Numbered from the stretch's first letter, positions 2,366 through 59,131 are shown. The stretch: DNA of 64,000 nucleotides from Candidatus Enterousia sp. (GCA_045648885.1 JAZROV010000002.1:94628-158627); one strand, 5' to 3'. The notes: generated by a model not told the origin, from the letters alone. Made by a program: numbers and translations.

Positions 2366-5300
2366 AAGAGAATAAAATGAAAAAACAATTAAACATATTG
2401 ATTGATGGACGCACTTTAAAATGGGGCTTATCTAAGGGTACGCGTAACGGTATTTTTTTCGTAACAAAAAATGTTTTTCAAGAATTAACGCAAAGAAACA
2501 ATGTAAACATACACATGTTTTTACCATGTGAAGATGCAAATTTATCAGATCAATTGATTAGTTTAATAGGTGCAAAATCTATGTCTGTTGTGACAGATCG
2601 AGATGATATGTCATCAATAGATGCATTTTTATCGCCATTGGAAAAAATACCGGATTGTGTGAAACAATATCCAAATATTTCGAATTATACAATATTATAT
2701 GATGTGACTCCGTTGATTTTTCCAATGTATTTTAAATCTGGGTCTACAGGTTGGTTTGAACAATTGGTGGCTTCATTAAATTTACAAGATTTCTATTTTT
2801 CAATTTCTGATTATACTAAATCTGATTTTTTAAGGTATTGTCCAAATTTAGATAGTGATAAAATTACAACAATACCTTTGTCGACAAATTTACCATATAA
2901 ACCAAATACAAAAGCAAAACAATTAGCGGCTGTGTGCAAAAAATATAATATACCAACCGACAAAAAATATCTTTTTTCCCTTTGTTCGCTGGAACCACGT
3001 AAAAATTTAATTCGTGCTGTAAAAACATTTTTGGATTTTATAAAAAAAAATAAAATCAATGATTTGGTTTATGTCTTGGGCGGTGGTGCGTGGAGCGGTT
3101 TTGTTGAAAAATTAGAAAAGGAAGTTCCAGATTATCAAAAATATTCTGATAAAATTATTCGTGCAGGCTATGTTGATGATGCTGATTTGGAAATTTTATA
3201 TTCCAACGCGTTGTGGTTTGTTTATACTTCGCAATACGAAGGTTTCGGTATGCCGCCATTAGAGGCAATGTCTTGCGGATGTCCTGTGATTACATCAAAT
3301 AATACCAGTTTGCCAGAAGTTGTTGGTGGGGCGGGTCAAATGATAGATTGGGACAGTGACGAACAACATGTTGCATCGTATGAAAAATATTATTTTGATG
3401 AAAAATATCGTAAATCAATGGCGAAAAAAGGGTTGGCACGTTCTAAAAAATTTTCATGGAAATCTGCCGTTGATATTATTTTAAATAAAATGAATGAAAT
3501 TGAAAAACGCAAATCAAACAAACCATTGGTGACTGTGGTCACAGGCTCTTTTAACCTGATTAAAAACGGTCGGCAGGAAACGTTTGCGCAAACAATAGAA
3601 TCTGTTCAAAAACAGACATATAAAAATATTGAACATATTGTGATTGACGGGGCTTCGACCGATGGCACAATCGATTTGTTAAAAGAATATGAAAAAAAAG
3701 GCCTTATTAAATACTATTCTGAACCAGACAAGGGTATTTATGATGCTATGAACAAAGGTATTTTAAAGGCCAAAGGAAAATATGTAGTTTGTTTGAACAG
3801 TGATGATTTTTATTCTGATGAACATGCGATTGAATGGTTAGTGAAAAAAGCAGAAGAACAAAATGCAGATGCTGTTTATGCTGATGCTGTGCGTGTTAAC
3901 CCAAAAACTTTGGCGGTTATAAATGTATGGCCAGGAAAAGGAAATTTCCAACCATGGAAACCGCAATTCCCGTGTCATCAAACATTTTTAATTAAAACAG
4001 ACGTAATGAAAGAATTAGGATTGTATAAATTAAAATACAAAGTGTGTGCGGATAATGCTTTTTTTTGTCGTTTGGAACAACATAATAAAAAAATTGCCGT
4101 GTTGGATAGAAAAATTATAACTTTTCGCGATGGTGGTTTTTCAAATGATAATATGGCTGTTGTAGAACAAGATAAAAAAGAGCTTTTGTTTGAAGAGTTG
4201 GGGCAATATCATAATTTAACAAAAGACGATTGTTCAAATTTGATTTTAAACAGATTTTGTTCTTTGCCTATTGATGATGCTATTAAATTAGGTGCTAAAC
4301 TTGAAAAATCAGAATGGGTTAAACAATATTTTAATATTTTATCTGATTATCATTTGCGCAATATACGTGTTCCAGATAAAACAGAAATAAATTGTGTTTT
4401 TAATTTATTTGATGTTTTTCGGTTATTTAAATATGAACAAACCAAAGATTTCGTGCGTTTAAAAATATTTGGTATCACAGTGTTTAAAATCAGAAAAACA
4501 TTATATTTTCAAAAATATTATTTGTTTGGGTTGCCTATTTTTAAAATAAATAATTTAACCCAGAAAAGAAATATACTGCAAAATATAATGTTTAAATTTG
4601 CAAATAAACAAAAAATATTCAAAAGAAATAAATTTTTATTGGTTGATAATACATTTAATAATACTGCCGAATTGACCGATAGTTTTGCTTTGTTTGAATA
4701 TTTACAGGCACATCCAAAATATAAAGATAAAAGTTATTATATTATAAACAAATTAAACGCACAATTTGACGAGATTGCAAAAAAATATCCGAACAATATT
4801 ATTCCGGTTGAACATGGTCGTTTAAATTGGTGTTTGCTTTGGAAAATGGTACGTGCAAAATATTGGATTGATTCATTCCAGGTTATTGGTTCTTTTGATC
4901 CAGATGGCGAGATTTGTAATGGACAAATCACAACTGTTTATGCACAACATGGTATCAATTATCTTAAACTGGGTTTTTTGGGTGATATGTCAATCAGTCC
5001 AAAATATTTTAATAAAATAATTTTCAGCAATGAAACAGAACGCGATTTATTCAAAAACTATTATGGCTATGACGATAAAAATACAATTATTGCGGGCTTG
5101 TCTCGTTGGGATTTAATGAAAGAGAAATCTGAAGAAAAAATAATTTTTGTGTTCTTTACTTTCCGAGATTATTTAAGAAAATTATCGGGAGATGCGATTG
5201 CTAAGACACGGTATTATGAAAATGTTTGCAGATTGTTAAATTCAAAAAAATTAAATGATTTGCTGAAAAAACATAACGTAAAATTATATGCAGCAGTTCA

Positions 5301-9187: not shown

Positions 9188-10378
9188 ATGTCTAGACAAA
9201 TACAAATCCGGCGCGGCAGTGCCGCTGAACACGATAATTTTACCGGTGCAATTGGCGAAATTACTATGGATACAACAAACAAAACTCTGCGTGTACATGA
9301 TGGGGTTACGGTTGGGGGTAATGAAATTATGTCAATGGATAAATTTTATTCAAATATAACGAATTGTATTACATGTATTCCACAAGATATAAATTTAAAA
9401 TTATCTGATGGGACATTGACTTTAAAGGCTGGTAGTAAATGTTATCTGAAAACAGACACAACTACACCAAGTATTGCTGTTTCATCTGATTTAACAACTA
9501 CACAAACAACGAATGGTAGTTATTTTGTGTTTTATGATGGAACTGGTTTGACGACAGCTTTGACTAATACGTATGATTATTCTAGTTTGCCAGATACATA
9601 TTCATTGCCTTTGGCGATAGTGACTGTTTCAGGAAATACTATATCGTCCATTGATCAAATATTTAATGGTTTTGGGTTTATTGGTGCTAAGGTTTTTGTT
9701 TTACCTGGTGTCAAAGGGTTGGCTCCAAATGGAAAAAATTCAGATGGAACTTTGAAAAATACAACTATTTCTATATCATCTGTAAAAATATCAGATACAT
9801 ATAATTCAAAATATGTTATGAATTCAGACGGTATAGTTCCTGCCAGTTATACAACGTATGTTGAACAGGACACCAAACCAAGTTTTTCTAATGGTGATTG
9901 GTATAATCCAGACGAAAATATTATGTATCAAATAGTCAATGGGGTTGCCATACCAAAGGTTAGATTATACGCGTTCGATGTTTTTGCAGCTGGCAGTGGT
10001 GTTCAACCGGCTATAGGAATAAAACTAAAACAAACATTTCATTCGTTAAGTTATGGTGACAAAGGTGTTGTTGCAGGTTGGAGTATGCCATCAGGTAAAA
10101 AAATATCTTTGACATTAGGGGCGTCGGATTCAACATACAAAGCACCAGCAAATGGTTGGTTTTATTTAGAAGCAATTGTTCCAACTAATGGGTATGCAGT
10201 TCGACTTGTTGCAACAGATGGGACTGCAAAGAAATCCCAAGTTCGTTCTGGTGCAAATAACCAATATTGTATTGTTCCATTATATCCCACATATGCTGGT
10301 GAAATAGTTCAGGTTCACTATGATGGAACTTTATCAAGCGTATCATTTTTATTTATTTATGCGCAAGGCGAAAAATAG
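9188..10378 (+). CDS. phage tail-fibre-like protein (conserved tail-fibre N-terminal motif)
   Basis: N-terminus IQIRRGSAAEHDNFTGAIGEITMDTTNKTLRVHDGVTVGG matches the RRGxAAxW...GEIGxETDTxKxKIGDGVT motif shared by phage tail fibre and hyaluronidase-type proteins. The remainder is Thr/Ser/Gly-rich and beta-rich. Confidence 0.5.
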   Translation: MSRQIQIRRGSAAEHDNFTGAIGEITMDTTNKTLRVHDGVTVGGNEIMSMDKFYSNITNCITCIPQDINLKLSDGTLTLKAGSKCYLKTDTTTPSIAVSSDLTTTQTTNGSYFVFYDGTGLTTALTNTYDYSSLPDTYSLPLAIVTVSGNTISSIDQIFNGFGFIGAKVFVLPGVKGLAPNGKNSDGTLKNTTISISSVKISDTYNSKYVMNSDGIVPASYTTYVEQDTKPSFSNGDWYNPDENIMYQIVNGVAIPKVRLYAFDVFAAGSGVQPAIGIKLKQTFHSLSYGDKGVVAGWSMPSGKKISLTLGASDSTYKAPANGWFYLEAIVPTNGYAVRLVATDGTAKKSQVRSGANNQYCIVPLYPTYAGEIVQVHYDGTLSSVSFLFIYAQGEK

Positions 10379-12126: not shown

Positions 12127-12486
12127 ATGTTTTATGGGGGTATAGATATGTCCGGAAAGGGTGGTTATATTACAGATACAGATAAAACCATCGGAAAACG
12201 TATTAAATTGCGCAGAATCATGCTTCGAATGACACAATCTGATTTGGCACAGATGTGTGGCATTTCTTTTCAGCAAATACAAAAATATGAATCTGGGGTG
12301 AATCGAATATCTTGTTCGCGATTGTTCAAAATAAGTCATGTATTAAATGTTCCAATTGAATTTTTCTTTGATAACATAAATGAAATGTACAGAACAGAAA
12401 CGCTGGAATTAATCGTTTTGTATTGGGCTTTGTCGAAAGATATCAGAAAAAATCTTGTTTTAAATGTAATTAAACAGTTCAGGTAA
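12127..12486 (+). CDS. XRE-family helix-turn-helix transcriptional regulator
   Basis: IGKRIKLRRIMLRMTQSDLAQMCGISFQQIQKYESGVNRIS is a classic HTH_3 (Cro/CI) signature. The true start may be the internal Met at 12148. Confidence 0.6.
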   Translation: MFYGGIDMSGKGGYITDTDKTIGKRIKLRRIMLRMTQSDLAQMCGISFQQIQKYESGVNRISCSRLFKISHVLNVPIEFFFDNINEMYRTETLELIVLYWALSKDIRKNLVLNVIKQFR

Positions 12487-12488
12487 TC

Positions 12489-12505
12489 TTGCGGGAGATG
12501 GATTT
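12489..12505. repeat. 17-bp direct duplication of the tRNA-fMet 3' end (att-like scar)
   Basis: ttgcgggagatggattt is identical at 12489-12505 and 12672-12688, the latter inside the tRNA. Confidence 0.6.
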
Positions 12506-12668
12506 ATTTCGCTTCGCTTCATTGGCGGCGGATTTTTGCGTTTCACGCAAACCGGCATACTGTCGTCTGCCTAATCCTTGCACTGAACCACCTTATCTCG
12601 GTGGCTCAAATTCAACACAACACACATTAAATAAAAAATACACCACAGGGGTGTATTTTTCATTTAAC

Positions 12669-12745
<77 letters not shown>

Positions 12746-15892: not shown

Positions 15893-17140
15893 TTGATGAA
15901 ACAAGTCATAACCGTTCGTCGCAGAAAATATGCAACAGGTCTTTTTTGGCAGCCTGTAAATCCGGGCGTGACACCGTATCTTTATGCGCGACAATTGGTC
16001 GCAAAAAGCGATAAAAAATATACTCTGTTGACCGAATATAAATCGATGATCGGGTTGGCAGAATCGCGCGACGGTGTTCGGTCGGGAATGAATACTGCTG
16101 CGGCAGAGGTTATGAACGCATTTCCTGAATTTTCATCATTTTTGGGTGTTTTTCGTGTAGATAATCGGTTTTATCTGGTTGCGGTGCGTAATGGTGTTAT
16201 TATTCGTGATGTTTTGGTGGAAAAAGAAAGCGATGCCCGAAAATTATACGCTGAATTATCAAATATGCCAGATTGGGGGGCGTTGTTTGCCCCGTCAAGT
16301 TGGGGTATGCCTCGTTCCCAGGAAAAATTTTTGCAAGATATTGTGAAAAATGAATCTGTGGCACGGTTGCGTCAAATCAGTATTGTAAAATCTGTCGCGC
16401 CGTCAATTGTTTTGTTTTTAATTTTATTGGGTGTTGGTTTGTATTTTCTTTATTCTCCGTTGTTTAAATCTATGTCTGCGCCAAAAAGCACAGGGTTGAA
16501 TCCTGAATTGATGGCCGAATATCAAAAGCAATTGGAAGCGAAAAACCAAGAATTAGACAAAGAGTTTGAGATTGTAAAATCTGCATTGGTTTATCCATAT
16601 GATAATTTGCCCGATGTCATGGAACGGGCGCGGCTTTGTTATAAAGCAACCGGGTTTGTGATGCAGCCTGTGATGGGTTGGGACCAGAAAAATACAATGT
16701 GTGACGAAGAACATGTATCTGTGGTCTTTACGCGTGATTTTGGAACATTAAATGATTTTTATTTGGTTGGTGGTGATGTTATGCCGGGCGGTATAGTGCA
16801 CCAGGTATCTGATAATGAAATTCGTGTGCGTGCAAAATTGCCGGCATTAAAAACACATTCTTCGGTTGATGAACGTGACCAAGAAACGGCTATGCGTGAC
16901 ATAGTTTCTGTTTTTCAACAGGTAAATATGAAAGCGGGTATCAGGGCATCAAATGAAATTATTCGTAATAATAAAGAAAAAGCAACTGTGAATTTTATAG
17001 AAGTCAGCGCGAGTTCTAAATTAGTGCCGTCTGAATTTATGCAGATATTTAATGATTTTGATGGTGTTTATATGAAATCTGTTGGGTGGGATGCAAGAGA
17101 TAGAATCTGGAATTACAACGTTGTTATTTATACAAAATAA
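15893..17140 (+). CDS. bitopic inner-membrane assembly protein (GspL/PilO-like) of a T2SS/T4P-family apparatus
   Basis: 415 aa with an ~160-aa cytoplasmic domain, a single TM (SIVLFLILLGVGLYFLY) and a periplasmic domain. It lies directly upstream of the PilP-like, ATPase and platform genes. Confidence 0.35.
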   Translation: MMKQVITVRRRKYATGLFWQPVNPGVTPYLYARQLVAKSDKKYTLLTEYKSMIGLAESRDGVRSGMNTAAAEVMNAFPEFSSFLGVFRVDNRFYLVAVRNGVIIRDVLVEKESDARKLYAELSNMPDWGALFAPSSWGMPRSQEKFLQDIVKNESVARLRQISIVKSVAPSIVLFLILLGVGLYFLYSPLFKSMSAPKSTGLNPELMAEYQKQLEAKNQELDKEFEIVKSALVYPYDNLPDVMERARLCYKATGFVMQPVMGWDQKNTMCDEEHVSVVFTRDFGTLNDFYLVGGDVMPGGIVHQVSDNEIRVRAKLPALKTHSSVDERDQETAMRDIVSVFQQVNMKAGIRASNEIIRNNKEKATVNFIEVSASSKLVPSEFMQIFNDFDGVYMKSVGWDARDRIWNYNVVIYTK

Positions 17141-17152
17141 AAAGGTGAAAAA

Positions 17153-17824
17153 ATGTTAAAGAAAATCTGTTTTTATTTGTGCTTTGGTGTATTTTGTGTG
17201 TGCGTTGGTGTCAATGCGTATGCAGAAGAATTCGAAGAAGTTTTTATTGAAGAAAGAAGTCCAGATGAAATTTCTGCCCAGGCGTTGGAAGATTACCAGG
17301 TAGAAGGTTCTTTGTTTGAACGTATTACAAATCTGGAACAAGAAAAATTAGTTATGCAATTGGAAAAAGACCGTATCGAATTAGATTTGGCGTTGGACAG
17401 ATTGAACAAAGAAAAAATCAAAATCCAACAAGAATTAGAAGATATGTCTGGGCGTGCAGACCGTCAACAGCAAGAATTAGAATTGGCCAAGGCTCAATTG
17501 GAAGAACAAACCATGGAATTGAAACGCAAAATGGAAGCGTTGGATAACAGGGTAGAAGAAGCACCTGTACAAAGAGAAACGCCAAAAAGACAAGAAGAGC
17601 CAGTCGATACATCTGTGCAGATTGTTGGTAAATATAAATTATTAAATGTTGTTGGTGTTGGTAATCAATTACAGGCTACAATTCAAGATATTGCAACGGG
17701 TCAAAATAAACGCATAGCAGTTGGTAAGCAATTAGATGGATATACTGTCAAATCTATTTCGTTAAACGACGGAATTGTGTTTGAAAAAGATGGTGTTTCA
17801 GAAAATTTGAATGTTGGAAAATAA
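17153..17824 (+). CDS. PilP/GspC-HR-like periplasmic coiled-coil protein
   Basis: Signal peptide, a long coiled coil, and a C-terminal beta-domain VGKQLDGYTVKSISLNDGIVFEKDGVSENLNV. Confidence 0.35.
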   Translation: MLKKICFYLCFGVFCVCVGVNAYAEEFEEVFIEERSPDEISAQALEDYQVEGSLFERITNLEQEKLVMQLEKDRIELDLALDRLNKEKIKIQQELEDMSGRADRQQQELELAKAQLEEQTMELKRKMEALDNRVEEAPVQRETPKRQEEPVDTSVQIVGKYKLLNVVGVGNQLQATIQDIATGQNKRIAVGKQLDGYTVKSISLNDGIVFEKDGVSENLNVGK

Positions 17825-17827
17825 AAT

Positions 17828-19456
17828 ATGGCGAACGAAGATAATTCTTTTGTAGAAATGTCAAATAAACCGTCTGTGCCAGCCGGGTTGGAGAACGCGG
17901 GCAGTAAAGACATTTTGGAATATTTGTTTTCAAATGATAATAAATTGCTGACGGCGACATCTGCGGAATATGCTTTGTCAAAAGACACCCAAGGATTGGT
18001 TGCGTATTTTTCTGGTGGTGAAATAATTATATCCAGAACACATCGATATGATGGTCGCGTGTTGGCTTTCTTAGATTTATTGCATCGTAATAATATTGTA
18101 ACAAAACAGCCGTTTTATTCTGATTTGGCGTTGTTGTCAAATATTTATAAAACAAATGATCAACGTATTGGCGAAGCAGATGCATCACGTTTTGATTATG
18201 AAAACCAGATGCAGAAAGATTTTGTTGATATTATCGCGCGTGCGGCCGCTCAAAAGGTGTCTGATATTCACGTTGAAGTTGCAGACCAGACAACAATTTA
18301 TTTCCGTATTGATGGAAGTATGCAACCGGTTTTGGAATATAATTCTCAATGGGGGGAATCTTTTGTTCGTGCGGCATTTGCGTCTGCGGATATATCTAAT
18401 TCTTCGTATGCACAAAATGAATACCAGGCTGCCCAGAAAGACGGTCGAACCCCATTGCGTGGTACGCGTGATTTGTATTTGCCGTCGGCTGTGTTGGGGG
18501 TTCGTATGCAATTTAACCCGATTGCGTTCGGCAGTCAATATTTGGTTATGCGTTTGCTTTATGATAACCCCAGCGAAGGTATCAAAACCGAACAGGAATT
18601 TAATGATTATGAACAAAAATTATTGATGCGTTTGCGTTCGGCGCCAACAGGTTTGGTTGTGGTTGCAGGGCCTACATCTTCGGGTAAATCGACAACGCTG
18701 GTGCATAATATGGCGTTGATGTTGAAAGAACACAGATACGAAATCAATTTGATTACCGTGGAAGATCCGGCAGAACAGAAAATTTTCGGCGCGCATCAAA
18801 TGCCTGTGGTGAACGCGTCTAATGAAGAACAACGTGATGCGAAATTTACAGAAGCGTTGGCAGCGGCATTGCGAAGCGACCCTGATACAATGATGGTCGG
18901 TGAGGTTCGTACTTTGTCTGCGGCGCAATTGACGGTCAAAGGCGCGTTGTCTGGGCATAATGTGTGGACAACGTTGCATGCGAACTCTGCAATGGGTGCG
19001 TTGACGCGTTTGTTGGATATGGGGGTAGAAGCGTTTAAATTAAAAGACGAAACCATGATGCGTGGATTGGTTTCAATGCGTTTGTTTAAAAAACTTTGTC
19101 CGTATTGTCGTGAACGTTTGATTGATAAACCTGATTTGCCGGTGTATCAACGTATGAAAGAAGCGTTCGGTGATTTGGGACTGCAACAGGCGTTTGTTCG
19201 TGGCGCAGGTTGTGAAAATTGCAAGGGCGCAGGAACAATCGGGCGTATCAAAGCAGGCGAAATCATTTTAACAAACAGTGAATTTTTAAGTTTCGCACTG
19301 GCCGGTGAAACTGAAGCGGCTTTGCGCTATTGGCTTGAAAAATTAGACGGCAGAACATTGAAAGAAGCCGCCATAGAATTGATGTTAAAAGGTATCATCG
19401 GCGTGGACGAAGTAGAACGTTGGGTTGGATTGTTGGACAGACCGTGGGTATATTAA
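17828..19456 (+). CDS. type II secretion / type IV pilus assembly ATPase (GspE/PilB family)
   Basis: Walker A AGPTSSGKSTT, His box TTLHANSAMGAL, and a tetracysteine zinc motif CPYCRE...CENCKG. Confidence 0.8.
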   Translation: MANEDNSFVEMSNKPSVPAGLENAGSKDILEYLFSNDNKLLTATSAEYALSKDTQGLVAYFSGGEIIISRTHRYDGRVLAFLDLLHRNNIVTKQPFYSDLALLSNIYKTNDQRIGEADASRFDYENQMQKDFVDIIARAAAQKVSDIHVEVADQTTIYFRIDGSMQPVLEYNSQWGESFVRAAFASADISNSSYAQNEYQAAQKDGRTPLRGTRDLYLPSAVLGVRMQFNPIAFGSQYLVMRLLYDNPSEGIKTEQEFNDYEQKLLMRLRSAPTGLVVVAGPTSSGKSTTLVHNMALMLKEHRYEINLITVEDPAEQKIFGAHQMPVVNASNEEQRDAKFTEALAAALRSDPDTMMVGEVRTLSAAQLTVKGALSGHNVWTTLHANSAMGALTRLLDMGVEAFKLKDETMMRGLVSMRLFKKLCPYCRERLIDKPDLPVYQRMKEAFGDLGLQQAFVRGAGCENCKGAGTIGRIKAGEIILTNSEFLSFALAGETEAALRYWLEKLDGRTLKEAAIELMLKGIIGVDEVERWVGLLDRPWVY

Positions 19457-20531
19457 TATGACAAAATTAGATTATTGGTGGGCAAAATTTAGTTTCAGAT
19501 TTGATACGCAAAAGCGTATGGCGGTCAGTAATAAAATCGCGTCATTGTTACGGAATGATTTTACTTTGATGGATGCGTTGCATCGTATTGAAATGATTGA
19601 ATCTCAAAATGGTAAAAAACCAGATGAAGCCTTTGCCATAGCTATGCGTGAAATCCAAAAAAATATGGAACAGGGGATGAGTTTTTCTGAGGCTACGCGT
19701 GGGTGGGTACCCCCAGATGAAACGTTATTATTGATGTCTGGAAATATGTCCAGTTTGGTTATATCTTTGGAAAATGTTTCGCGCGTTGTCAACGGGGTCA
19801 GTCGCATTAAACGTGCCATGACATCTGCGCTGGCATATCCGTTATTTCTGTTGGTGTTGACAATCGGTATTATTGTTATGGTCGGTGTTTATTTGGTGCC
19901 ACCATTGACAGAGGCAGCAGGCAGCAACATTGTTTGGCACGGGTCTGCACGATCTTTGATTTGGGCGTCTGATTTTTCAAATAAATATCTTTATCCTTTT
20001 TCCATAGGTTTGGGGGTTGCGATTCTTTTGATATGGATATCGCTTGCAAATTGGACTGGTAAATTGCGGACTGTGTTTGATAATTATCCGCCGTGGAATA
20101 TATATAAACTGCAAATATCGGTCAGTTGGATGATGTCTTTGGCTGCTATGGTTTCTGCGGACGTTTCTGTCCCAGATGCAATGCGGTTGTTGGCTGATAA
20201 TTCAAATCGGTATTTGGCGAATATTTTAAATGAAGCGCTGCATTATATTTCAAACGGTGATAATTTAGGAACTGCATTGGCCCAGACTGGTAAAAAATTC
20301 CCCAGTGAAGAAATCATAGGTGATTTGACGATTTATTCTGATATGAATGATTTTGATAAAAATATTAATAAAATCGCTAATGATTATATGGAAAATGCAG
20401 TGCGTCGTATGGAATCTTTGTCCAGTGCTATGAATGCAGCGGGGATGGCGTTGGTATCCGTTGTTATGGGTTGGGTCGTGTTGGGAACTTTTGCAATGCA
20501 AGAGCAAATTACGGCCGTATTGACAACCTAG
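19425..20531 (+). CDS. GspF/PilC-like inner-membrane platform protein
   Basis: 368 aa with three predicted TM helices at GspF-like positions, located immediately after the GspE-family ATPase. Confidence 0.5.
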   Translation: MDCWTDRGYINMTKLDYWWAKFSFRFDTQKRMAVSNKIASLLRNDFTLMDALHRIEMIESQNGKKPDEAFAIAMREIQKNMEQGMSFSEATRGWVPPDETLLLMSGNMSSLVISLENVSRVVNGVSRIKRAMTSALAYPLFLLVLTIGIIVMVGVYLVPPLTEAAGSNIVWHGSARSLIWASDFSNKYLYPFSIGLGVAILLIWISLANWTGKLRTVFDNYPPWNIYKLQISVSWMMSLAAMVSADVSVPDAMRLLADNSNRYLANILNEALHYISNGDNLGTALAQTGKKFPSEEIIGDLTIYSDMNDFDKNINKIANDYMENAVRRMESLSSAMNAAGMALVSVVMGWVVLGTFAMQEQITAVLTT

Positions 20532-26272: not shown

Positions 26273-26365
26273 GAGTAGTTATTTTACCATAAAAACAGTG
26301 GTAAAACAAATTGTTTTGCAATTATAGTTGCAAATCAGAAAAAGTTTGATATAATGCACCCTGCT

Positions 26366-26440
26366 GGCGGCGTAGCTCAGTGGTAGAGCAGAGGAATCAT
26401 AATCCTTTGGTCAGGGGTCCGAATCCCTTCGCCGCTACCA
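26366..26440 (+). tRNA. tRNA-Met (anticodon CAT; elongator Met or Ile2-type)
   Basis: GGCGGCGTAGCTCAGTGGTAGAGCAGAGGAATCATAATCCTTTGGTCAGGGGTCCGAATCCCTTCGCCGCTACCA folds as a cloverleaf with a 7-bp acceptor stem (G1-U72 wobble) and CAT in the anticodon loop. Confidence 0.8.
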
Positions 26441-26479
26441 AAATTCAAACCGGGTTTATCCCGGTTTTAATTTTGGTAT
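26396..26479. repeat. 84-bp direct repeat, copy A (3' half of tRNA-Met plus 39 bp downstream)
   Basis: Matches 29174-29257 with 2 mismatches. Confidence 0.7.
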
Positions 26480-26750
26480 TGGGATTTGGAGCACGATGAA
26501 GGGGTTCGACCCGCAGCAAAAAGGCGGGATAACGCCAGTTTGCCGTCAGGCAAATTTTGCAAGGGAGTGAAGCGCAGCGAAACAATCCCGAGCCGCATAG
26601 TATCAAAACCAAAAAACATGAATTTTGTTAAAACTGTCCAATCTTTACATAATTCTACACATCGACTATACGGCGGTTTACACGGTGTATATGTTGTAAA
26701 TTAGACAGTTTTATGATATAATGCCGAAAAGAAAAACAAAGGTTTTTATA

Positions 26751-27275
26751 ATGATTTATTACAATGAAAACGATATTTTAATCAGAGATTTGGTTGAATC
26801 TGATGCCGAAGTAATATCCCACGAAGAACATTTACAAGGGTTGCTAGACAAACAACCAGCTAGATATTTTCGTAGATTGAAAGACGTAGCAGACGGGAAA
26901 TGTGTTTCCTTGGTTGCTGAATACAAAGGTAATCCTGCTGGTTATATCAATGTCTATTTTGATTCACAATGGGGTGCATTTGCTGGTAAAGGTTGGCCAG
27001 AAATTATTGATATGAGAGTGCTGGAGAAATATCAAAAAAATGGTGTTGGTAATATGTTAATGAATATTGCAGAAGATATATCGAAAAAATATTCTGATAC
27101 TGTTTATTTGGGTGTTGGTGTAAATAGTAATTATGGTTCTGCATTCAGAATGTATGTTAAACACGGATTTGTCCCAGACGGTACTGGTTTGTGGAGAAAT
27201 GATGAACATTTAGAAAATTATACAGATATAAAATATGACGACGACGTTATTATTTATATGTCAAAGAAATTCTAA
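26751..27275 (+). CDS. GNAT-family N-acetyltransferase
   Basis: Motif A QKNGVGNMLMNIAE. The ATG at 26721 falls inside a TGaTATAAT -10 element, so 26751 (MIYYNE) is the likelier start. Confidence 0.55.
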   Translation: MIYYNENDILIRDLVESDAEVISHEEHLQGLLDKQPARYFRRLKDVADGKCVSLVAEYKGNPAGYINVYFDSQWGAFAGKGWPEIIDMRVLEKYQKNGVGNMLMNIAEDISKKYSDTVYLGVGVNSNYGSAFRMYVKHGFVPDGTGLWRNDEHLENYTDIKYDDDVIIYMSKKF

Positions 27276-28144
27276 TGGGTTTGAATATGAATGATTATTT
27301 AGCAATTATCAAAGAAACATTTCCTGAATTAAATATTCAAGATTTTTCTATTCTGGGAAAAGGTAATTTGGCTGCAACTTGTTTGGTTAATAAAAACATT
27401 GTTTTTAAAATTACAGGTTCAAGTGAAAAAGCCCTTAAAGATACAGAACACGAAATATACCTTTTGAAACTGATAAACCACAATCTGTCATTTAATATCC
27501 CTAAAATTCTTTATGACGGTAAAATAAACAATGGTGGTTGGGTGTTTGGTGAAAGTTTGTTGCCAGGAATCACTTATTCAAAAAAATTACACGACAGTTT
27601 TGACAAAAACACCCAGGTAGATATTCTAAGACAAATTGGCAAAGTTATGCACAAATTACATTCTATCAAAGTCAATGACGACAAGAAATTGTTGTTTGTG
27701 GGTGATTATAAACAAAATATTGCTATGTTTAACAAATACTTTTCTGACGAAGTTAAACAATGTTTCAGCCAATCAGATATTGAACGAATAAATACTGTTC
27801 GTGAAAGATATGAATATCTCTCTATTCATTATCCTATTGAATTGGTTTTGGTGCACGCTGATATGCATTTTGGTAATTTTATGTTTGATACAGAACACAA
27901 AAAGATTACTGGTTTAATAGATTTTGGTGCAGCACATTTCTCAGAACCAGCACGTGATATGCATTATTACTATGGCGAAGATATAAAACATATTTTGGAG
28001 GGTTATGGTGAAACTAAAGATATTTATTTACCAGAACGTCAGAAATTCCATTCCGTAACAAACTTTCTGGAAAATATAGGTGGATATATACAAGAAAACC
28101 TATCACCAGATAATGAAATACAAAAATTGTTAAGTATTCTATAA
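27275..28144 (+). CDS. APH-family phosphotransferase (aminoglycoside/antibiotic kinase-like fold)
   Basis: Brenner motif VHADMHFGNFMF and IDFGAAHFSEPARDMHY. The start overlaps the GNAT stop (TAATG). Confidence 0.6.
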   Translation: MGLNMNDYLAIIKETFPELNIQDFSILGKGNLAATCLVNKNIVFKITGSSEKALKDTEHEIYLLKLINHNLSFNIPKILYDGKINNGGWVFGESLLPGITYSKKLHDSFDKNTQVDILRQIGKVMHKLHSIKVNDDKKLLFVGDYKQNIAMFNKYFSDEVKQCFSQSDIERINTVRERYEYLSIHYPIELVLVHADMHFGNFMFDTEHKKITGLIDFGAAHFSEPARDMHYYYGEDIKHILEGYGETKDIYLPERQKFHSVTNFLENIGGYIQENLSPDNEIQKLLSIL

Positions 28145-28146
28145 AA

Positions 28147-28176
28147 CAAAAAACCGGTCGAACGACCGGTTTTGTA
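28147..28176. terminator. bidirectional terminator hairpin
   Basis: aaaaccggtcgaacgaccggtttt between convergent genes. Confidence 0.55.
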
Positions 28177-28183
28177 TTTCGTA

Positions 28184-28507
28184 TTATACTTCCCAAGATT
28201 TGGTTTGGTATGTATTGATCGTCCCATCAGCAGAAACAGATGTTTTCCATTTTGGATAATCGTCACATTTAGAACGATTATTTTCCCACTGTAATGGTAC
28301 CAAGTTGATAATATCATCTGTACCACCTTTTGATACCGGTTTTTGATGATCTATTTCCCAACCATATTGAGATTCACAATTACCGTATTCTGATTTTTTG
28401 ATCCAAGCACCAGCATAGTCTTTGCGCCAAACATCAGCTTGTTCAGTGTTTACTATCTTTGCTTTCTTCCAAACATCATCAACAGTTTTTTCTTCAAAAT
28501 ATGCCAT
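28184..28507 (-). CDS. HNH endonuclease
   Basis: WEIDHQKPVSKGGTDDIINLVPLQWENNRSK is an HNH motif. Confidence 0.55.
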   Translation of the reverse strand: MAYFEEKTVDDVWKKAKIVNTEQADVWRKDYAGAWIKKSEYGNCESQYGWEIDHQKPVSKGGTDDIINLVPLQWENNRSKCDDYPKWKTSVSADGTINTYQTKSWEV

Positions 28508-29173
28508 TTTTTACTCCTTGAGTTATGGCATCGGAAAAAACTTATTACAAATCTTATTTTTTTATGATACACTCATAAGCAAGTCGATATGTAGTCGGTT
28601 TTTTCCGATTATTTATTTTTCCACCGATTTTCATGGCAGTGAATTTCGGTGGGACTTTCAAAATCAACATGTGGACCATATTGATTTATCAAACACAATA
28701 TATAGTATTTCCGGTTTATTAACAATATGTAAAATGTGAAAAAATATCATTTTATACTTGCATTTTTGTAAAGCCCGATAACAGCGCTTTGTAGGCACCG
28801 ATTCGCTGCAGAAATCAGCAGTTTTTTTGTACAAAATACTCTGAAGTGTGGGATTTTTAAACAATTTTTGTTAAAAATAATTATTTTTGCCCGGAAAACC
28901 GATTCGTTTTATTGAATTTTTGGGTTCTTTTATGCAAATTATAGACATAAAAATCTCGTAATTCTAGTTTGGTGTTATTTGTGTTTAAAATCAAAATAAA
29001 ATCCATAATTACAGTTTCGGTTTAATGTGCGATGGGGTATGATAAAACTATAAACGCATAGTGTCTTTTTGTATGCATGGTTCTACATATTGACTACACG
29101 GGAAATTTTGGCGTGGCAGAAAATCGGCCACAACCCGCATAAATGCGTGTTATTCGGTTTTGTGTGTCAAAAC

Positions 29174-29257
29174 ATCATAATCCTTTGGTCAGGGGTCCGA
29201 ATCCCTTCGCCGCTACCAAAATTTAGACCGGGTTTATCCCGGTTTTAATTTTGGTAT
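29174..29257. repeat. 84-bp direct repeat, copy B (partial tRNA-Met 3' half plus flank); attR-like
   Basis: See copy A. It lacks the 5' half of the tRNA. Confidence 0.7.
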
Positions 29258-29371
29258 AGTCGCGAAAGATGAGGACCCTGGTCCGACAAAATAGCAGTTG
29301 AGAACAAGTGAAACGCCGTTCGAAACGTTGCGATTTGGAAAGGGGCCCGTTGCGAAGCAATGGGAATATAC

Positions 29372-29390
29372 AATCCCTTCGCCGCTACCA
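29372..29390. repeat. third 19-bp copy of the tRNA-Met 3' end
   Basis: aatcccttcgccgctacca matches 26422-26440. A hairpin terminator follows at 29398-29424. Confidence 0.6.
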
Positions 29391-29498
29391 AGATAACAAA
29401 CGACCCTTGTGGTCGTTTTTTATTTTGATATAATCGCGACGGATACCAAGAAAATTTCGCGTTTTTTCTCTTTTTTGTTTTTATTTTTTGTTTGATTT

Positions 29499-30134
29499 GT
29501 GTATGATTTTAATCAGTTAAAGGTTTTAATAATGAAAAAGATTGTCTATTATTTATTCATTTCAATTATCTTTTCATTGATGTTCACATTGGTAGATGTT
29601 TTAAATCGCCGGGTTGTAATAAATAATAAAACTGGCGTTGTCAGTGATTTGATAAATGGTGGATTAGGTCTGGGCAGTACAGGGTTAGGCAGTATAGGTT
29701 TTGGTGATTTTAATGTAAAACAAAATATGGATGCTAATTCGGTATGTACGGATGATAAACCTTTGTTGTTGACCAATGGTGAATGTGTTGCGTGCGATTA
29801 CATGTTGGATGAAAATACAGATGTTTTAATCGGATGTGAAAAATGTTCTGGGAATGCAAAATGTTTGTTGAAAATGGATGGTGAAGAAAAAAATAAAATT
29901 CAGCCGCGTATAAATAAACCGAGAATAGAAAGCAAACATAAATACAAATTGATAAAAATTACAGGTAGTGATGAAAATTTGCGCGGCGAAGTATTGGAAA
30001 CTCAGTCAGGACGTAAAAAATTCGTTTTTATTGGCGGTCTGGTTGATGGGGCGGTTGTAAAATCTGTTTCTGGAGACGGTAAAATCGTAGTTGAAAAAGA
30101 CGGCGAAAGCCAGAGTTTGGATATTGAAATGTAA
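29499..30134 (+). CDS. secreted/membrane-anchored protein with PilP-like C-terminal beta-domain
   Basis: N-terminal hydrophobic segment and a Cys-rich middle region. The C-terminus GGLVDGAVVKSVSGDGKIVVEKDGESQSLDI parallels the C-terminus of the 17153-17824 protein. The likely start is MKKIVYY at 29532. Confidence 0.4.
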   Translation: MYDFNQLKVLIMKKIVYYLFISIIFSLMFTLVDVLNRRVVINNKTGVVSDLINGGLGLGSTGLGSIGFGDFNVKQNMDANSVCTDDKPLLLTNGECVACDYMLDENTDVLIGCEKCSGNAKCLLKMDGEEKNKIQPRINKPRIESKHKYKLIKITGSDENLRGEVLETQSGRKKFVFIGGLVDGAVVKSVSGDGKIVVEKDGESQSLDIEM

Positions 30135-30378
30135 TATCGGCAATAATCTGTTTTTTATATTGCAACTTATATTTTTTAGGTTTAAAATATCGCGTATCAA
30201 AGGTTTTGTATGATGTGTTGATGCGATTAACGCCCGCGGAATGTCGTATAAAATTGAAAAAGCGAAAAAACTGGGGTGGCACCGCGCGAAAGAATCTTAG
30301 CGCCCCCGGGATGTAAGATTTGAATTGGTGCCGAAAAAATCTATTTTTTTTCAGGGCGCCACAAACAAGGGTGTAAAA

Positions 30379-45947: not shown

Positions 45948-46498
45948 TTATTTCTTCTTAAATTTTGCAAAACAGTTAGTGTCACGAAAACGATTTTCAT
46001 ATACTAACCATCTGTCTTGTTTCAAAACACCTTCTAATTCGTATCCTAATTTTTTTGCTACGTTTACAGAATTTTTATTTAACACATCGTTATGAATAAT
46101 TATTTTATTAAAACCATTTCTAAACAATTCTTGTTCCAATAAACGCACAGATTCCATAACATAGCCGTTTCCACGATAGTCATTTGCCAACCAAAAACCT
46201 AATGCGACTTTTTTATTTTTTATATCAACTTCTACAGCACCGCAACTGCCTATAATCACATTATTTAATACAATTGCATACTCATAGGCATCGTTATTAT
46301 CCCATTTTTTATCAGATTGAATTAAAAAATTATGTGTATCTTTTTCGGATTTTGTATCGTTTAACCACTGCATCCAAGGCAACAAGAAATTTCTATTTTG
46401 AACCAAAACTTCATACATCAATTTCGCATTATCTAATGTTGGTTCCAAATGCATCAATGTGATTCTTGGACCTTTTAATACATATTTCATAATATCTC
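45948..46498 (-). CDS. GNAT N-acetyltransferase (RimJ/RimL-like)
   Basis: PRITLMHLEPTLDNAKLMYEVL...LLPWMQW and a GNAT core. The longer track ORF (to 46664) probably over-extends, and the Met at 46498 fits the family N-terminus. Confidence 0.5.
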
Positions 46499-46593
46499 CT
46501 TTTGATACGAATTGTATCATAATTTTATTTGTATTTGAAACTAAAACCGCCTTGGTGGATTCGAACGGAGCAAACACTTGGAAATCTAAAGAA

Positions 46594-46725
46594 AAACCGC
46601 ACTTTTTAAGTTCGGTGTATCTTTTGGTGGGAGTGGGTGGATTGGCTCGGTCAAAGACCTGCACCGCATTCGTTAGCGCTCAAACTGCGTTTACACTTGT
46701 TTTCGCTTACTCATAGACGAACCAA
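46594..46725. repeat. ~130-bp direct repeat, copy 1, containing a tRNA-Tyr 3'-end fragment (tggtgggagtgggtggatt)
   Basis: Near-identical to 47816-47947. Confidence 0.7.
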
Positions 46726-46808
46726 ATGAACTTCGTTTATATGGCCGAATACCATAAACCACATCACAGCAAAAACAAAAACCAACCGCAAGGGTTGGTT
46801 TGTGCTTT

Positions 46809-46983: not shown

Positions 46984-47748
46984 ATGGCTATTATACTTGG
47001 TGGTGGCGGCAGTGCAGAACAAACCATTATTACAAATAAGTTATTTGAGAGTTTGATAGATTCTAAGAAACCAATTTTGTATATTCCTTTGGCATGGAAT
47101 CATTATGATGAAGGTTATCAAAATTGTAAGAAGTTTTTAATTGGAGAATTTTGCAATATTAAACATGGTGAAATAGAAGTTGTACAATCTGCCGATGAAA
47201 TTTTAAATAAAAATTTGTTTGATTATTCTGCTATTTTTATAGGTGGTGGGAATACCTATAAATTATTAAAAGGATTGAAAGATAGTGGTGCGTTTGGAAA
47301 AATAAAACAGTATACTGATAACGGTGGTATAGTTTATGGTGGCAGTGCTGGTGCGGCAATATTTGGAAAAGATATTGATTCTATTTTGTATATGGATACA
47401 AATAATGTTGGATTAAAAGATACAAATGGCTTTAATTCTTTGTTCGGTTTTTCGCTTACTGTACATTATACAAATCAAAGTGAGGAGAAGCATAAAAAAG
47501 CCACAGAATATTTAATAGAATATTCTATGCGTGAACCGATAATCGCGTTACCAGAAGAAGATAGCCTTTATACAGATGGAAAAATTGTAAAAATTGTTGG
47601 AACAAGACCTTGGTATATTTTTAATAAAGGCAAAAGTATACAATTAAACCCAGGTGTTGAATATAAAAAGGCTAATTTTACCAACATTGTAAAGAATGTT
47701 GGTGTATTCGAACAGAGCAAAGTATTGGAAAACCGGAGCATTCGATAA
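46984..47748 (+). CDS. S51-family peptidase (PepE/cyanophycinase-like)
   Basis: IFIGGGNTYKLL and the catalytic serine context GGSAGAAIFG. Confidence 0.55.
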   Translation: MAIILGGGGSAEQTIITNKLFESLIDSKKPILYIPLAWNHYDEGYQNCKKFLIGEFCNIKHGEIEVVQSADEILNKNLFDYSAIFIGGGNTYKLLKGLKDSGAFGKIKQYTDNGGIVYGGSAGAAIFGKDIDSILYMDTNNVGLKDTNGFNSLFGFSLTVHYTNQSEEKHKKATEYLIEYSMREPIIALPEEDSLYTDGKIVKIVGTRPWYIFNKGKSIQLNPGVEYKKANFTNIVKNVGVFEQSKVLENRSIR

Positions 47749-47815
47749 TCAGTAAAAATTAGTTGTTTTCAAAAACGCCATTATCGAACTCGTAAAATTA
47801 TTAGAAATCCAACAA

Positions 47816-47947
47816 AAAACCGCACTTTTTAAGTTCGGTGTATCTTTTGGTGGGAGTGGGTGGATTGGCTCGGTCAAAGACCTGCACCGCATTCGTTAGC
47901 GCTCAAACTGCGTTTACACTTGTTTTCGCTTACTCATAGTCGAACCA
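47816..47947. repeat. ~130-bp direct repeat, copy 2, containing a tRNA-Tyr 3'-end fragment
   Basis: See 46594-46725. Confidence 0.7.
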
Positions 47948-48030
47948 AACAAACTGCGTTTGTATGGTCTAATACCACAAACCACGACCGACAAAATAAA
48001 AAATGCACCCGTTGGGTGCATTTTTTGTTT

Positions 48031-48117
48031 TGGTGGGAGTGGGTGGATTCGAACCACCTCAGTCGTAAGACAACAGATTTACAGTCTGCCCCGGCTCTCC
48101 AACTCCGGCGCACGCCC
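48031..48117 (-). tRNA. tRNA-Tyr (anticodon GTA), long variable arm
   Basis: The reverse complement GGGCGTGCGCCGGAGTTGGAGAGCCGGGGCAGACTGTAAATCTGTTGTCTTACGACTGAGGTGGTTCGAATCCACCCACTCCCACCA has the GCAGACTGTAAATCTG anticodon arm, as in bacterial tRNA-Tyr. It has one C4·U69 acceptor mismatch. Confidence 0.7.
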
Positions 48118-57460: not shown

Positions 57461-57490
57461 AAGATTTGGTTTTTATAAAAGGATGAAAAG

Positions 57491-59071: not shown

Positions 59072-59131
59072 TTTGATTTTGCGCCTGGGGGTATTTTTCC
59101 CCCAGACGCAATTTAAAAAAAGGTTTGTATT

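Follow-up and report, generated by a model that had tools for sequence, protein, structure and literature searches.

A putative integrase-less integrative islet and a family of structured non-coding units at the tRNA-Met gene of Candidatus Enterousia

The window analysed here is a 64 kb stretch of the genome of a Candidatus Enterousia species (Alphaproteobacteria, order Rs-D84; mean GC content of the window 36.4%), in which a tRNA-Met gene carries an islet of 2,778 bp, inserted at its anticodon loop, and beyond it a small structured non-coding unit. From its sequence, the islet appears to be a horizontally spread integrative element that encodes no integrase of its own, and the locus would be the outcome of two or more site-specific insertions that differ in kind. 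For comparison, we used 72 stretches from species-representative genomes that match the 3' half of this tRNA-Met exactly (relatives carry labels such as L002), all of which were found by this exact search to be Candidatus Enterousia or gut or rumen Alphaproteobacteria metagenome-assembled genomes. The order Rs-D84 has genomes smaller than 1 Mb and lacks a respiratory chain (PMC12306168). In the relatives' genomes, tRNA-Met is flanked by PagL and UDG on one side and aspS on the other, and, depending on the species, the next core gene lies as close to the tRNA as 94 nt or as far away as over 7 kb; this spacer is a hypervariable hotspot throughout the genus. A survey of about 210 downstream open reading frames (ORFs) found them to be mostly ordinary core genes, with a synteny that differs among species.

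The insertions are marked by repeats of the tRNA gene. An 84-nt direct repeat (26396-26479 and 29174-29257, 98% identity) spans the sequence from the anticodon loop to the CCA end and then a 39-nt hairpin, both of its two mismatches lying in the hairpin part. The 19-mer AATCCCTTCGCCGCTACCA is present in three exact copies, starting at 26422, 29200 and 29372, the last of these occupying 29372-29390; shuffled sequence returned a mean of 0.01 matches in the repeat search. A terminator scan found a terminator-like hairpin after each of these tRNA-end copies (26447-26467, 29225-29245 and 29398-29418), and the twin of the attL block, at 29174-29257, has a folding z score of -5.5. A further copy of the 3' end, the fourth, is degenerate (AATCCCGAGCCGCATAGTATC, 26585-26605) and terminates a second structured unit (26480-26605). 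The initial annotation of this stretch had placed the tRNA-Met, the 84-bp repeat and the third 19-bp copy correctly, as confirmed with ARAGORN, Rfam and the repeat search, and its interpretation of the repeats as attachment (att)-like sites left by successive insertions into the tRNA gene agrees both with these repeats and with the uninterrupted site seen in relatives. Its implication that the third 19-bp copy is the remnant of a second island was not borne out: with this copy ends a non-coding unit of 172 bp that is complete and conserved.

The presence of the islet is polymorphic. L037 and L050 are empty of it, having the tRNA, hairpin, type-B unit, 19-mer and native terminator hairpin H1 in one uninterrupted series; L037 is 93.6% identical to the window over 29174-29431, and there the sequence of the attR block is contiguous with the full tRNA. 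H1 lies immediately 3' of tRNA-Met in many species. Conversely, the left part of the islet recurs in other species: window positions 26338-28177 are 95.1% identical to L032 over 1,844 nt, with corresponding identities of 91.6% in L027 and 94.3% in L022, and copies of the GNAT protein 98-100% identical to that of the window are found at the tRNA-Met of L022, L027, L032 and L002. The core proteins of L032 are only 53% (PagL), 72% (UDG) and 59% (orf224) identical to those of the window. As the junction layout is the same in the independent assemblies L002, L022, L027 and L032, misassembly is unlikely to account for it. The GC content of the islet is 33.1% (31.3% for the GNAT-APH genes), as against 39-41% for the flanking core genes. 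Syntenic conservation of GNAT and APH as housekeeping genes beside this tRNA, which would have spoken for a resident origin, is not what the relatives have; the islet is foreign and patchily distributed.

Islets bounded by half a tRNA, and starting at the same nucleotide, are present in L025, L054, L060 and L071, where they are 3.4-4.1 kb long. Those of L025 and L054 encode a 473 aa tyrosine integrase adjoining the attR arm, a partial copy of which is found in L060; the enzyme is P4-like, and its domains are HTH_17, Arm-DNA-bind_3, SAM-like and Phage_integrase. The expectation that a cognate integrase would be found elsewhere thus holds for related elements in other genomes but not for the window itself: tblastn and phmmer searches with this integrase detected no homologue in the islet, in the 64 kb window or in the other 69 stretches, in line with the absence of an integrase already noted in the initial annotation. 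Nor did Pfam searches of 20 further window ORFs identify any integrase, transposase or reverse transcriptase, the remainder of the approximately 56 ORFs being judged from their first residues alone. Approximately 90-230 nt upstream of every half-tRNA copy are homologous between elements, and arms homologous to the attR arm of the window precede every partial tRNA half in L002, L025, L054, L060, L063 and L071. Both arms of the window islet (26645-26690 and 29076-29105) contain TCTACAC / TTACACG repeats around 11 nt apart, and the same motifs are found at the same relative positions in the integrase-encoding islets of L025 and L054; they are candidate arm-type integrase sites. Scans of viral contigs with the tRNA 3' half and with a unit motif gave no matches, and so no evidence for a phage parent.

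We consider it probable that the islet was moved by integrase-mediated recombination in the anticodon loop, with the integrase acting in trans, following an older insertion of T-loop type that brought in the type-B unit. In the older event, a 172-bp non-coding unit comprising the terminator hairpin H2, a 114-nt structured body and the duplicated 19-mer would have inserted at the T-loop-to-CCA end of tRNA-Met, shifting the native terminator H1 downstream. In the later event, a circular element of 2,778 bp would have recombined in the anticodon loop through the 84-nt identity block, made up of the tRNA 3' half and H2, such that the copy belonging to the element would now complete the functional tRNA (attL) and the chromosomal 3' half would have been moved to 29174-29257 (attR). 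We infer that the unit predates the islet because it is already present at the empty site in L037 and L050. The two insertions differ in that the identity is of 19 nt and T-loop type for the unit, but of 84 nt and anticodon-loop type for the islet. The islet would have hitchhiked, in the manner of a cis-mobilizable element (CIME), on a P4-like tyrosine integrase with HTH_17, Arm-DNA-bind_3 and catalytic domains, provided by sister elements that share the same site and arm motifs.

Several observations weigh against this account. No integrase is found within the 64 kb window, and only three of the 72 related stretches have one; the candidate arm-type sites are recognised by their repetition and position only; the GC content of the islet is just about three points under the window mean; and a 126-nt unit lies between the core and left arm sites in the window but not in L025 or L054, and may have disabled the element. 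Furthermore, the 84-nt identity runs 39 nt past the tRNA and is long enough for RecA-dependent recombination of the Campbell type, such that this copy need not have depended on an integrase. This provides the main rival explanation, in which a single RecA-dependent crossover between a circle and the resident tRNA-H2 sequence, needing no integrase, brought in the islet, or else a local duplication followed by divergence produced the arrangement. A near-identical repeat of 84 nt exceeds the typical identity block of an integrase, the cassette at tRNA-Tyr described below is bracketed by a still longer repeat of 228 nt, and the lack of an integrase in the window would be as expected. However, the repeat begins at the identical anticodon-loop nucleotide (..|ATCATAATCC) in all islets of the family, including those that encode an integrase, and arm motifs are conserved at both ends of the islet, whilst the cargo duplicates nothing nearby. 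We therefore regard an origin by RecA-dependent crossover or local duplication as improbable.

The islet itself is an ordinary object of the CIME or island-remnant kind. CIMEs are defined as retaining attL and attR whilst integration and transfer genes are absent (PMC6323972), and the islet appears to fit this definition: it has attL and attR, has neither integration nor transfer genes, and occupies the site used by related integrase-encoding elements in other genomes (L025 and L054), with tandem accretion at one att site as a further likeness. In contrast to CIMEs, which derive from integrative and conjugative elements of Firmicutes and have conjugative helpers (PMC6323972), no conjugation genes were seen here, and the putative helpers are islets of 3.4-4.1 kb with an integrase and one or two cargo genes. 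The tycheposons of Prochlorococcus and their remnants are similar in being found in streamlined genomes at tRNA hotspots, with older insertions pushed outward and partial tRNAs in between, and in that intact integrase-bearing elements are rare among many remnants and cargo is adaptive or defence-like (10.1101/2020.12.28.424599). They differ in that the elements described here are much smaller and no primase or helicase replication module was seen, the cargo ORFs examined being integrase, DUF3800, AAA_21 ATPase, GH3, GNAT, HNH and RhuM only; in addition, the arrays described here consist mostly of structured 170-bp units, for which a search for such terms in the tycheposon paper found no mention (10.1101/2020.12.28.424599). 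The islet illustrates how gene exchange continues in bacteria whose genomes are below 1 Mb and contain few mobile elements of the classical kinds, in this case as tiny integrase-less cassettes at a tRNA gene shared by species whose core proteins differ by up to approximately 47%.

The likeness to P4-like integrases extends from the combination of Arm-DNA-bind_3 and catalytic domains to the two identity blocks, one from the anticodon loop to the 3' end and the other the 19 nt from T-loop to CCA. An identity block of 19 nt from T-loop to CCA is typical of P4-like integrases, and integrases are said to have been divided by Williams in 2002 into tRNA sublocation classes that include an anticodon-loop and a T-loop class. 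Points of difference are the extra N-terminal HTH_17 domain, which is excisionase-like, the extension of the 84-nt block 39 nt past the tRNA, and the fact that no recombinase was found for the T-loop-type units. The positions of the features are collected below.

Table. Features of the tRNA-Met locus and of the parallel units at tRNA-fMet and tRNA-Tyr, in window coordinates
Feature	Position	Strand	Evidence
Type-A-like unit downstream of initiator tRNA-fMet (12669-12745)	12486-12625	-	Ends in AATCCATCTCCCGCAA, the tRNA-fMet 3' end
Intact tRNA-Met(CAT), putative integration target	26366-26440	+	ARAGORN; Rfam tRNA, 66.4 bits
Putative attL identity block: tRNA part from anticodon loop to CCA, followed by the 39-nt hairpin H2, a bidirectional terminator (stem 26447-26467)	26396-26479	+	84-nt repeat; terminator scan
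Degenerate type-A structured unit in islet	26480-26605	+	Alignment with type A/D units; GC 54%
Left-arm cluster, candidate arm-type sites TTCTACAC / CTATACGG / TTTACACGG	26645-26690	+	Motif search: 2 matches vs 0 expected
GNAT acetyltransferase, 174 aa	26751-27275	+	Pfam Acetyltransf_1, 1.4e-12
APH-fold small-molecule kinase, 289 aa	27275-28144	+	PF01636, 4e-15
Bidirectional terminator between APH and HNH; right edge of conserved GNAT-APH module	28150-28173	.	Terminator scan
Stand-alone HNH nuclease, 107 aa, in variable gene slot	28184-28507	-	PF01844, 4.9e-5; PHROGs HNH / endonuclease VII
Conserved non-coding module	28482-28932	.	Six-locus alignment, 84% mean identity; blastn
Putative attR arm (P arm), including a pair of candidate arm-type sites spaced by 11 nt (GGTTCTACATATTGACTACACGG; 29076-29105)	28938-29173	+	Homologous arms in relatives
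Putative attR identity block: displaced chromosomal tRNA 3' half (29174-29218) and hairpin H2 (29219-29257)	29174-29257	+	Repeat; terminator scan
Type-B structured unit, 133 nt, GC 51%	29258-29390	+	Covariance model match, 151 bits; covariation; no Rfam match
Native tRNA-Met terminator hairpin H1 (stem 29398-29418), probably displaced downstream by insertions	29391-29425	+	Terminator scan
Second tRNA-Tyr-type unit and flank	46561-46788	-	228-nt direct repeat with 47784-48011, 86% identity
Structured unit downstream of tRNA-Tyr (48031-48117)	47848-47993	-	Exact copy of tRNA-Tyr 19-nt 3' end at 47848-47866

A folded family of non-coding units around 170 nt long, which copy the 3' end of the preceding tRNA and form the ends of cassettes, was the unexpected part of the locus. 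The complete unit at tRNA-Met is 172 bp long and consists of the terminator hairpin, a structured body of around 115 nt and the 19-mer. Such a unit of approximately 170 nt directly follows tRNA-Met in 46 of the 59 species that have enough downstream sequence; loci contain from zero to about five of them in tandem, each 159-178 nt long, with some species having none. The unit bodies fall into sequence families, each conserved across species, and the types are shuffled between loci; their GC content is 49-54%. A clean insertion is evident from the comparison of L024, in which the tRNA is followed directly by CGAATTTTT, with L011, where a 176-bp unit stands between the tRNA and CGAATTTTT and the 19-mer is duplicated. 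According to a tally, the type of the hairpin tracks the following body better than the preceding one. Units also form the ends of a 2-kb cassette in L021, and degenerate or truncated copies were found in the window (26585-26605), L015, L020, L047 and L077. Recognisable in the degenerate unit of the islet are the 5' half of the T-arm (AAGGGGTTCG), a structured insert and, in degenerate form, the 3' end of the tRNA (AATCCCGAGCCGCAT...). A metagenome scan with GATGAGGACC..GGTCCGAC returned at least 120 stretches, 80 of which were searched with the covariance model described below; eight had real units, all adjoining tRNA-Met, and the rest were chance matches.

In the unit at 29258-29390, which ends in the 19-mer (29372-29390), the 5' AGUCGCG pairs with the 3' CGCCGCU, and three hairpins are present: GGACC/GGUCC, a long one that covaries and has tandem G.A pairs, and one more. 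Eleven type B/E units were used to build a covariance model (R1), which detected more than 50 units at E < 1e-6, all of them on the strand of the tRNA. Across 23 strong matches, 93.4% of cells were paired and 14 of 29 pairs had changed on both sides, giving a covariation score of 0.372 compared with 0.135 in shuffled alignments (0/500 as high) and at most 0.058 in slid controls, although these counts lean towards structure as the alignment was fitted to the model. The long hairpin has covariation at six of seven pairs, and the helix enclosing it, as read from the sequences, covaries between families (CAAA/UUUG, CAC/GUG, CAAC/GUUG and AAAUUUGUA/UACAAAUUU); a four-way junction closed by 5' AGUCGCG and 3' CGCCGCU is predicted from this. 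G.U pairs far outnumber A.C pairs in the internal helices (22 vs 2), hence it is the tRNA-sense strand that folds, whether as DNA or RNA. The energies of single-sequence folding are close to those of shuffled sequences (z = -1.8 and -0.6), hence the case for structure rests on covariation. In type B, the 3' strand of the T-stem-like AGGGG/CCCUU pairing and of GAU/AUC is invariant, and the acceptor-like stem retains a mismatch in all cases. The units matched no Rfam 15 family at E values up to 1-5, with the tRNAs alone reaching the gathering score in the window, and ARAGORN did not recognise them as tRNA or tmRNA; a tmRNA or two-piece tmRNA was rejected on this basis. A hammerhead-like interpretation of GAUGAGG-stem-CCGAC was likewise rejected, the equivalent of A14 being C and no Rfam ribozyme being matched.

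Parallel units are found beside two other tRNA genes of the window, in both cases after a hairpin that follows the tRNA. That downstream of tRNA-Tyr matches the covariance model R1 weakly (19 bits), and the second tRNA-Tyr-type unit holds a third exact copy of the tRNA-Tyr 19-mer (46625-46643). The 228-nt repeat of which they form part brackets a cassette of 1,223 bp with a peptidase S51 gene (46984-47748, + strand), hence units also serve as cassette ends. The tRNA-Tyr site is empty in L201 and L203 but filled in the window and in L204, where the insert of the unit is homologous to the type-C insert found at tRNA-Met. At tRNA-fMet, the last 16 nt of the tRNA are repeated as the end of the unit, which adjoins an HTH_3 gene (12127-12486). 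In every unit, the 5' half of the cognate T-arm is found around 90 nt upstream of the 19-mer (Met, GGUCCG; Tyr, GGUUCG; fMet, GGUGGUUCA), such that the units look like a pseudo-tRNA split between nucleotides 57 and 58 by a structured insert. The 5' strand of the unit also matches the cognate tRNA (AGUCGCG in Met, GGUCGUG in Tyr), and the closing helix changes accordingly, with A1-U72 replaced by G1-C72 and C6-G67 by U6-A67 from Met to Tyr, and GGGAUU/AAUCCC by GAAUUU/AAAUCC in fMet.

The reading we prefer for the 160-176-bp units, that at 29258-29390 included, complements the explanation of the islet given above, although we put its chances at slightly short of even: they would be miniature non-coding integrative elements or portable att modules, inserted at the last 19 nt of tRNA genes by a T-loop-type recombinase of the P4 family acting in trans. 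Their fold, which the element would require as RNA or as single-stranded DNA, might be that of a tRNA-like RNA, insulating and processing transcripts that run on from the promoter of the tRNA and keeping the duplicated 3' end sequestered, or else that of a single-stranded recombination site comparable to the attC of integrons. Mobility is suggested by the presence or absence of units with a 19-nt duplication (L024 against L011 and, at tRNA-Tyr, L201 and L203 against the window and L204), their varying number and shuffled types, the closer correlation of hairpin type with the following body, the fit of the 19-nt T-loop-to-CCA block to P4-like integrases, the occurrence of units as the repeated ends of the S51 and L021 cassettes, and the covariation and G.U excess. 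However, no T-loop-type recombinase was found in any locus, a DNA circle of 165 bp is physically awkward, the covariation alignment was fitted to its model, and the cognate T-arm 5' half around 90 nt upstream of the 19-mer is not predicted by a simple attP model; indeed, no simple model accounts for that half inside the units. As an extension of this reading, the units may tentatively be seen as mobile elements of a new class, which would be non-coding, depend on structure and have a pseudo-tRNA as scaffold, with a covarying insert of about 90 nt between nucleotides 57 and 58, able to retarget among Met, Tyr and fMet tRNAs and serving as landing pads and cassette ends, making up an integron-like platform for gene capture in genomes of less than 1 Mb. 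Were this so, recognition of the fold, as RNA or single-stranded DNA, would be an unprecedented mode for elements that target tRNA genes; our literature searches found nothing similar to this family of units.

As the main alternative, the units could be tRNA-like small RNAs of benefit to the host, with a cloverleaf-like four-way junction and an acceptor-like stem ending in CCA, co-transcribed with the adjacent tRNA or processed like it and acting as decoys or sponges for tRNA-binding enzymes or toxins, their association with islets being secondary. This would be in keeping with the strong covariation on the tRNA-sense strand and the conserved tandem G.A pairs, with a GC content of 49-54% in a genome of 36% GC, with retention in 46 of 59 species whose genomes are below 1 Mb (PMC12306168), and with the match of the 5' strand and T-arm halves to the cognate Met, Tyr or fMet tRNA; nevertheless, a strong terminator stands ahead of each unit and no convincing promoter was found for the unit itself, species differ freely in the number and type of their units and some have none, the acceptor-like stem is always mismatched, the single-sequence fold is only marginally better than that of shuffled sequences (z = -1.8) and no Rfam family is matched, which makes this alternative rather unlikely. 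That the short repeats and bodies are just the decaying scars of old islands is very improbable. The degenerate and truncated copies listed above are what such decay would leave, but length is conserved (159-178 nt), several sequence families are each kept across species, and base changes are compensatory, with G.U far above A.C; mere decay is contradicted by the covariation of the bodies. If the units are either mobile att modules or tRNA-like RNAs, they would represent a new type of structured element, and might be exploitable as compact, site-specific landing pads.

Among known systems, integrons resemble this arrangement in having small, often single-operon cassettes gathered at one platform. 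The units may also correspond to the recombination sites of integrons, as modules conserved more in structure than in sequence of which one strand folds. GNATs are common cargo of integron cassettes. In contrast, no intI, attI or Pc is present here, the searches of the window having found no tyrosine recombinase; the core is 19 nt of a tRNA rather than GTTRRRY, and the units are multi-helix junctions of around 130 nt, many of them without cargo. With tRNA-like RNAs, such as the tmRNA domain, YrlA/Y RNA and viral tRNA-like structures, the units share an acceptor-like stem ending in CCA and a large structured insertion, but they match nothing in Rfam or ARAGORN, the insertion lies in the T-loop between nucleotides 57 and 58, the neighbouring tRNA is reproduced letter for letter at their 3' end, and the units are tandem and polymorphic.

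The cargo of the islet comprises a GNAT acetyltransferase and an APH-fold kinase, with an HNH nuclease on the opposite strand, each of which had been proposed in the initial annotation and is matched in Pfam. A promoter scan identified a promoter-like site after the left-arm cluster (26694-26722), which would serve the GNAT and APH genes; the stop codon of the former overlaps the start codon of the latter in TAATG (27273-27277), and the kinase gene is translationally coupled. The HxDxxxxN and DFG-like motifs of the kinase can be read in its translation as HADMHFGN and IDFG. Homology to L032, L027, L022 and L002 stops at 28173-28187, and the slot filled by the HNH gene in the window has elsewhere a gene for a 95 aa cysteine-rich protein (L026, L014, L027 and L032) or for a 42 aa basic peptide (L002). 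An IscB- or Cas9-like RNA-guided nuclease, for which the ORF-less stretch would supply the guide RNA, was rejected: the match is confined to the HNH motif (E approximately 1e-3 to 1e-4), and relatives have unrelated small genes in place of this one.

A stretch without ORFs does lie between the HNH gene and the second copy of the 84-nt repeat, but it measures 666 bp (28508-29173) rather than the roughly 430 bp first estimated, and is made up of the conserved non-coding module and the attR arm, with no credible gene. The module contains a ribosome binding site and promoter for the minus-strand gene, a terminator (28805-28822), the palindromes CCACCGA..TCGGTGG and AATCGG/CCGATT, repeated CCGATT motifs and two copies of ACCGATTCG; a regulatory region, binding sites for a recombinase or accessory protein, and an origin are all candidates for its role. 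A small transcript could end at the terminator.

The kinase appears from sequence comparison to be distantly APH(2'')-like: its best NCBIfam match, APH(2'')-Ie/IVa, reaches 64.8 bits where the cutoff is 600, with Mph(B) scoring 33 bits against 615, and a phmmer search of the PDB found APH(2'')-Id to be its nearest solved structure (E = 1e-17). The GNAT has no AAC signal in its sequence, with weak PaiA and RimI matches at most; its AlphaFold2 model (pLDDT 91.7) has generic GNATs as top Foldseek matches (template modelling scores of 0.64-0.73, at most 21% identity) and no preference for AAC. Homologues of the GNAT with 50-58% identity are found in gut Clostridia, the operon of GNAT and kinase has been kept in four different genomic contexts, and PADLOC matched no defence-system model to the cargo. 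The two enzymes are likely to be a pair that modifies small molecules. The initial comparison to AAC/APH aminoglycoside cassettes did not hold up, given a kinase far below the cutoffs and a generic GNAT fold. A cassette spread by selection for aminoglycoside or macrolide resistance is unlikely, even though APH(2'') enzymes and Mph macrolide kinases are what the kinase most resembles in NCBIfam and the PDB, its catalytic motifs read as intact, and the operon is both horizontally spread and maintained across its four contexts, in view of the kinase scoring 65 rather than 600 bits and the GNAT lacking an AAC signal in either sequence or fold. The absence of a respiratory chain limits aminoglycoside uptake. 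Enterousia has no such chain (PMC12306168), making selection for aminoglycoside resistance doubtful. The bifunctional AAC(6')-Ie/APH(2'')-Ia is similar in coupling a GNAT to an APH(2'')-like kinase, with catalytic motifs present, but the window encodes two separate proteins with low similarity (E = 1e-17; 65 vs 600 bits) and a GNAT that is not AAC-like. Hence caution is warranted in resistance surveillance before such a GNAT/APH pair is labelled an aminoglycoside-resistance cassette.

A number of smaller observations concern the tRNA genes and their surroundings. The promoter scan found a promoter-like site before tRNA-Met (26328-26355). The T-loop of this tRNA is unusual (UCCGAAU, with C at position 55), and it has G1.U72 and G27.U43 pairs; with its CAT anticodon, it may be an elongator tRNA-Met or a lysidine-modified tRNA-Ile2. 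In L037, around 27 nt of the tRNA-Met 5' end (CTGGCGGCGTAGCTCAGTGGTAGAGC) are tandemly duplicated directly upstream of the intact gene (approximately 2380-2410, - strand). In L021 (2031-2164, - strand), a half copy of the tRNA (ATCATAATCCTTTGGTCAG) is fused straight to the GGTCCGAC.. segment of a unit, which would reflect either an attR half copy whose T-loop received an insert or the loss of sequence between two GGTCCGA repeats. The tRNA-Met and its unit array are inverted relative to PagL/UDG and aspS in L009, L012, L028, L044, L056, L072, L077 and L078.

Beside the S51 cassette at tRNA-Tyr lie a GNAT gene (45948-46664) and a Zn-ribbon/PNPOx gene, both of families seen as cargo at tRNA-Met in other species. 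A palindromic insert between tRNA-Gly and tRNA-Tyr, present in L199 (5349-5486) and L204 (5317-5401) and absent in L201 and L203, begins right after the CCA with CGAATTTTC and ends in ..GAAAATTCAG or ..GAAAATCGAG. Its start, CGAATTTT, is also found after tRNA-Met 19-mers in many loci.

Upstream of aspS, most relatives have a tRNA-Thr(GGT), where the window instead has an uncharacterised ORF for a 200 aa membrane or secreted protein (29532-30134). A T-box-like leader also precedes aspS in the window (30094-30310) and in L002 (approximately 4290-4340); it scores 28 bits against a gathering score of 93 and has the AGGGTGGCACCGCG motif. To our knowledge, T-box leaders are rare in Alphaproteobacteria. 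Elsewhere, the window encodes a protein with the N-terminal domain of a major tropism determinant (Mtd_N; 9188-10378), a PilO / T2SS-E / T2SS-F gene set (15893-20531), and three tandem paralogues of 526 aa (55880-60712) that, judging by their N-termini alone, resemble AMP-binding enzymes.

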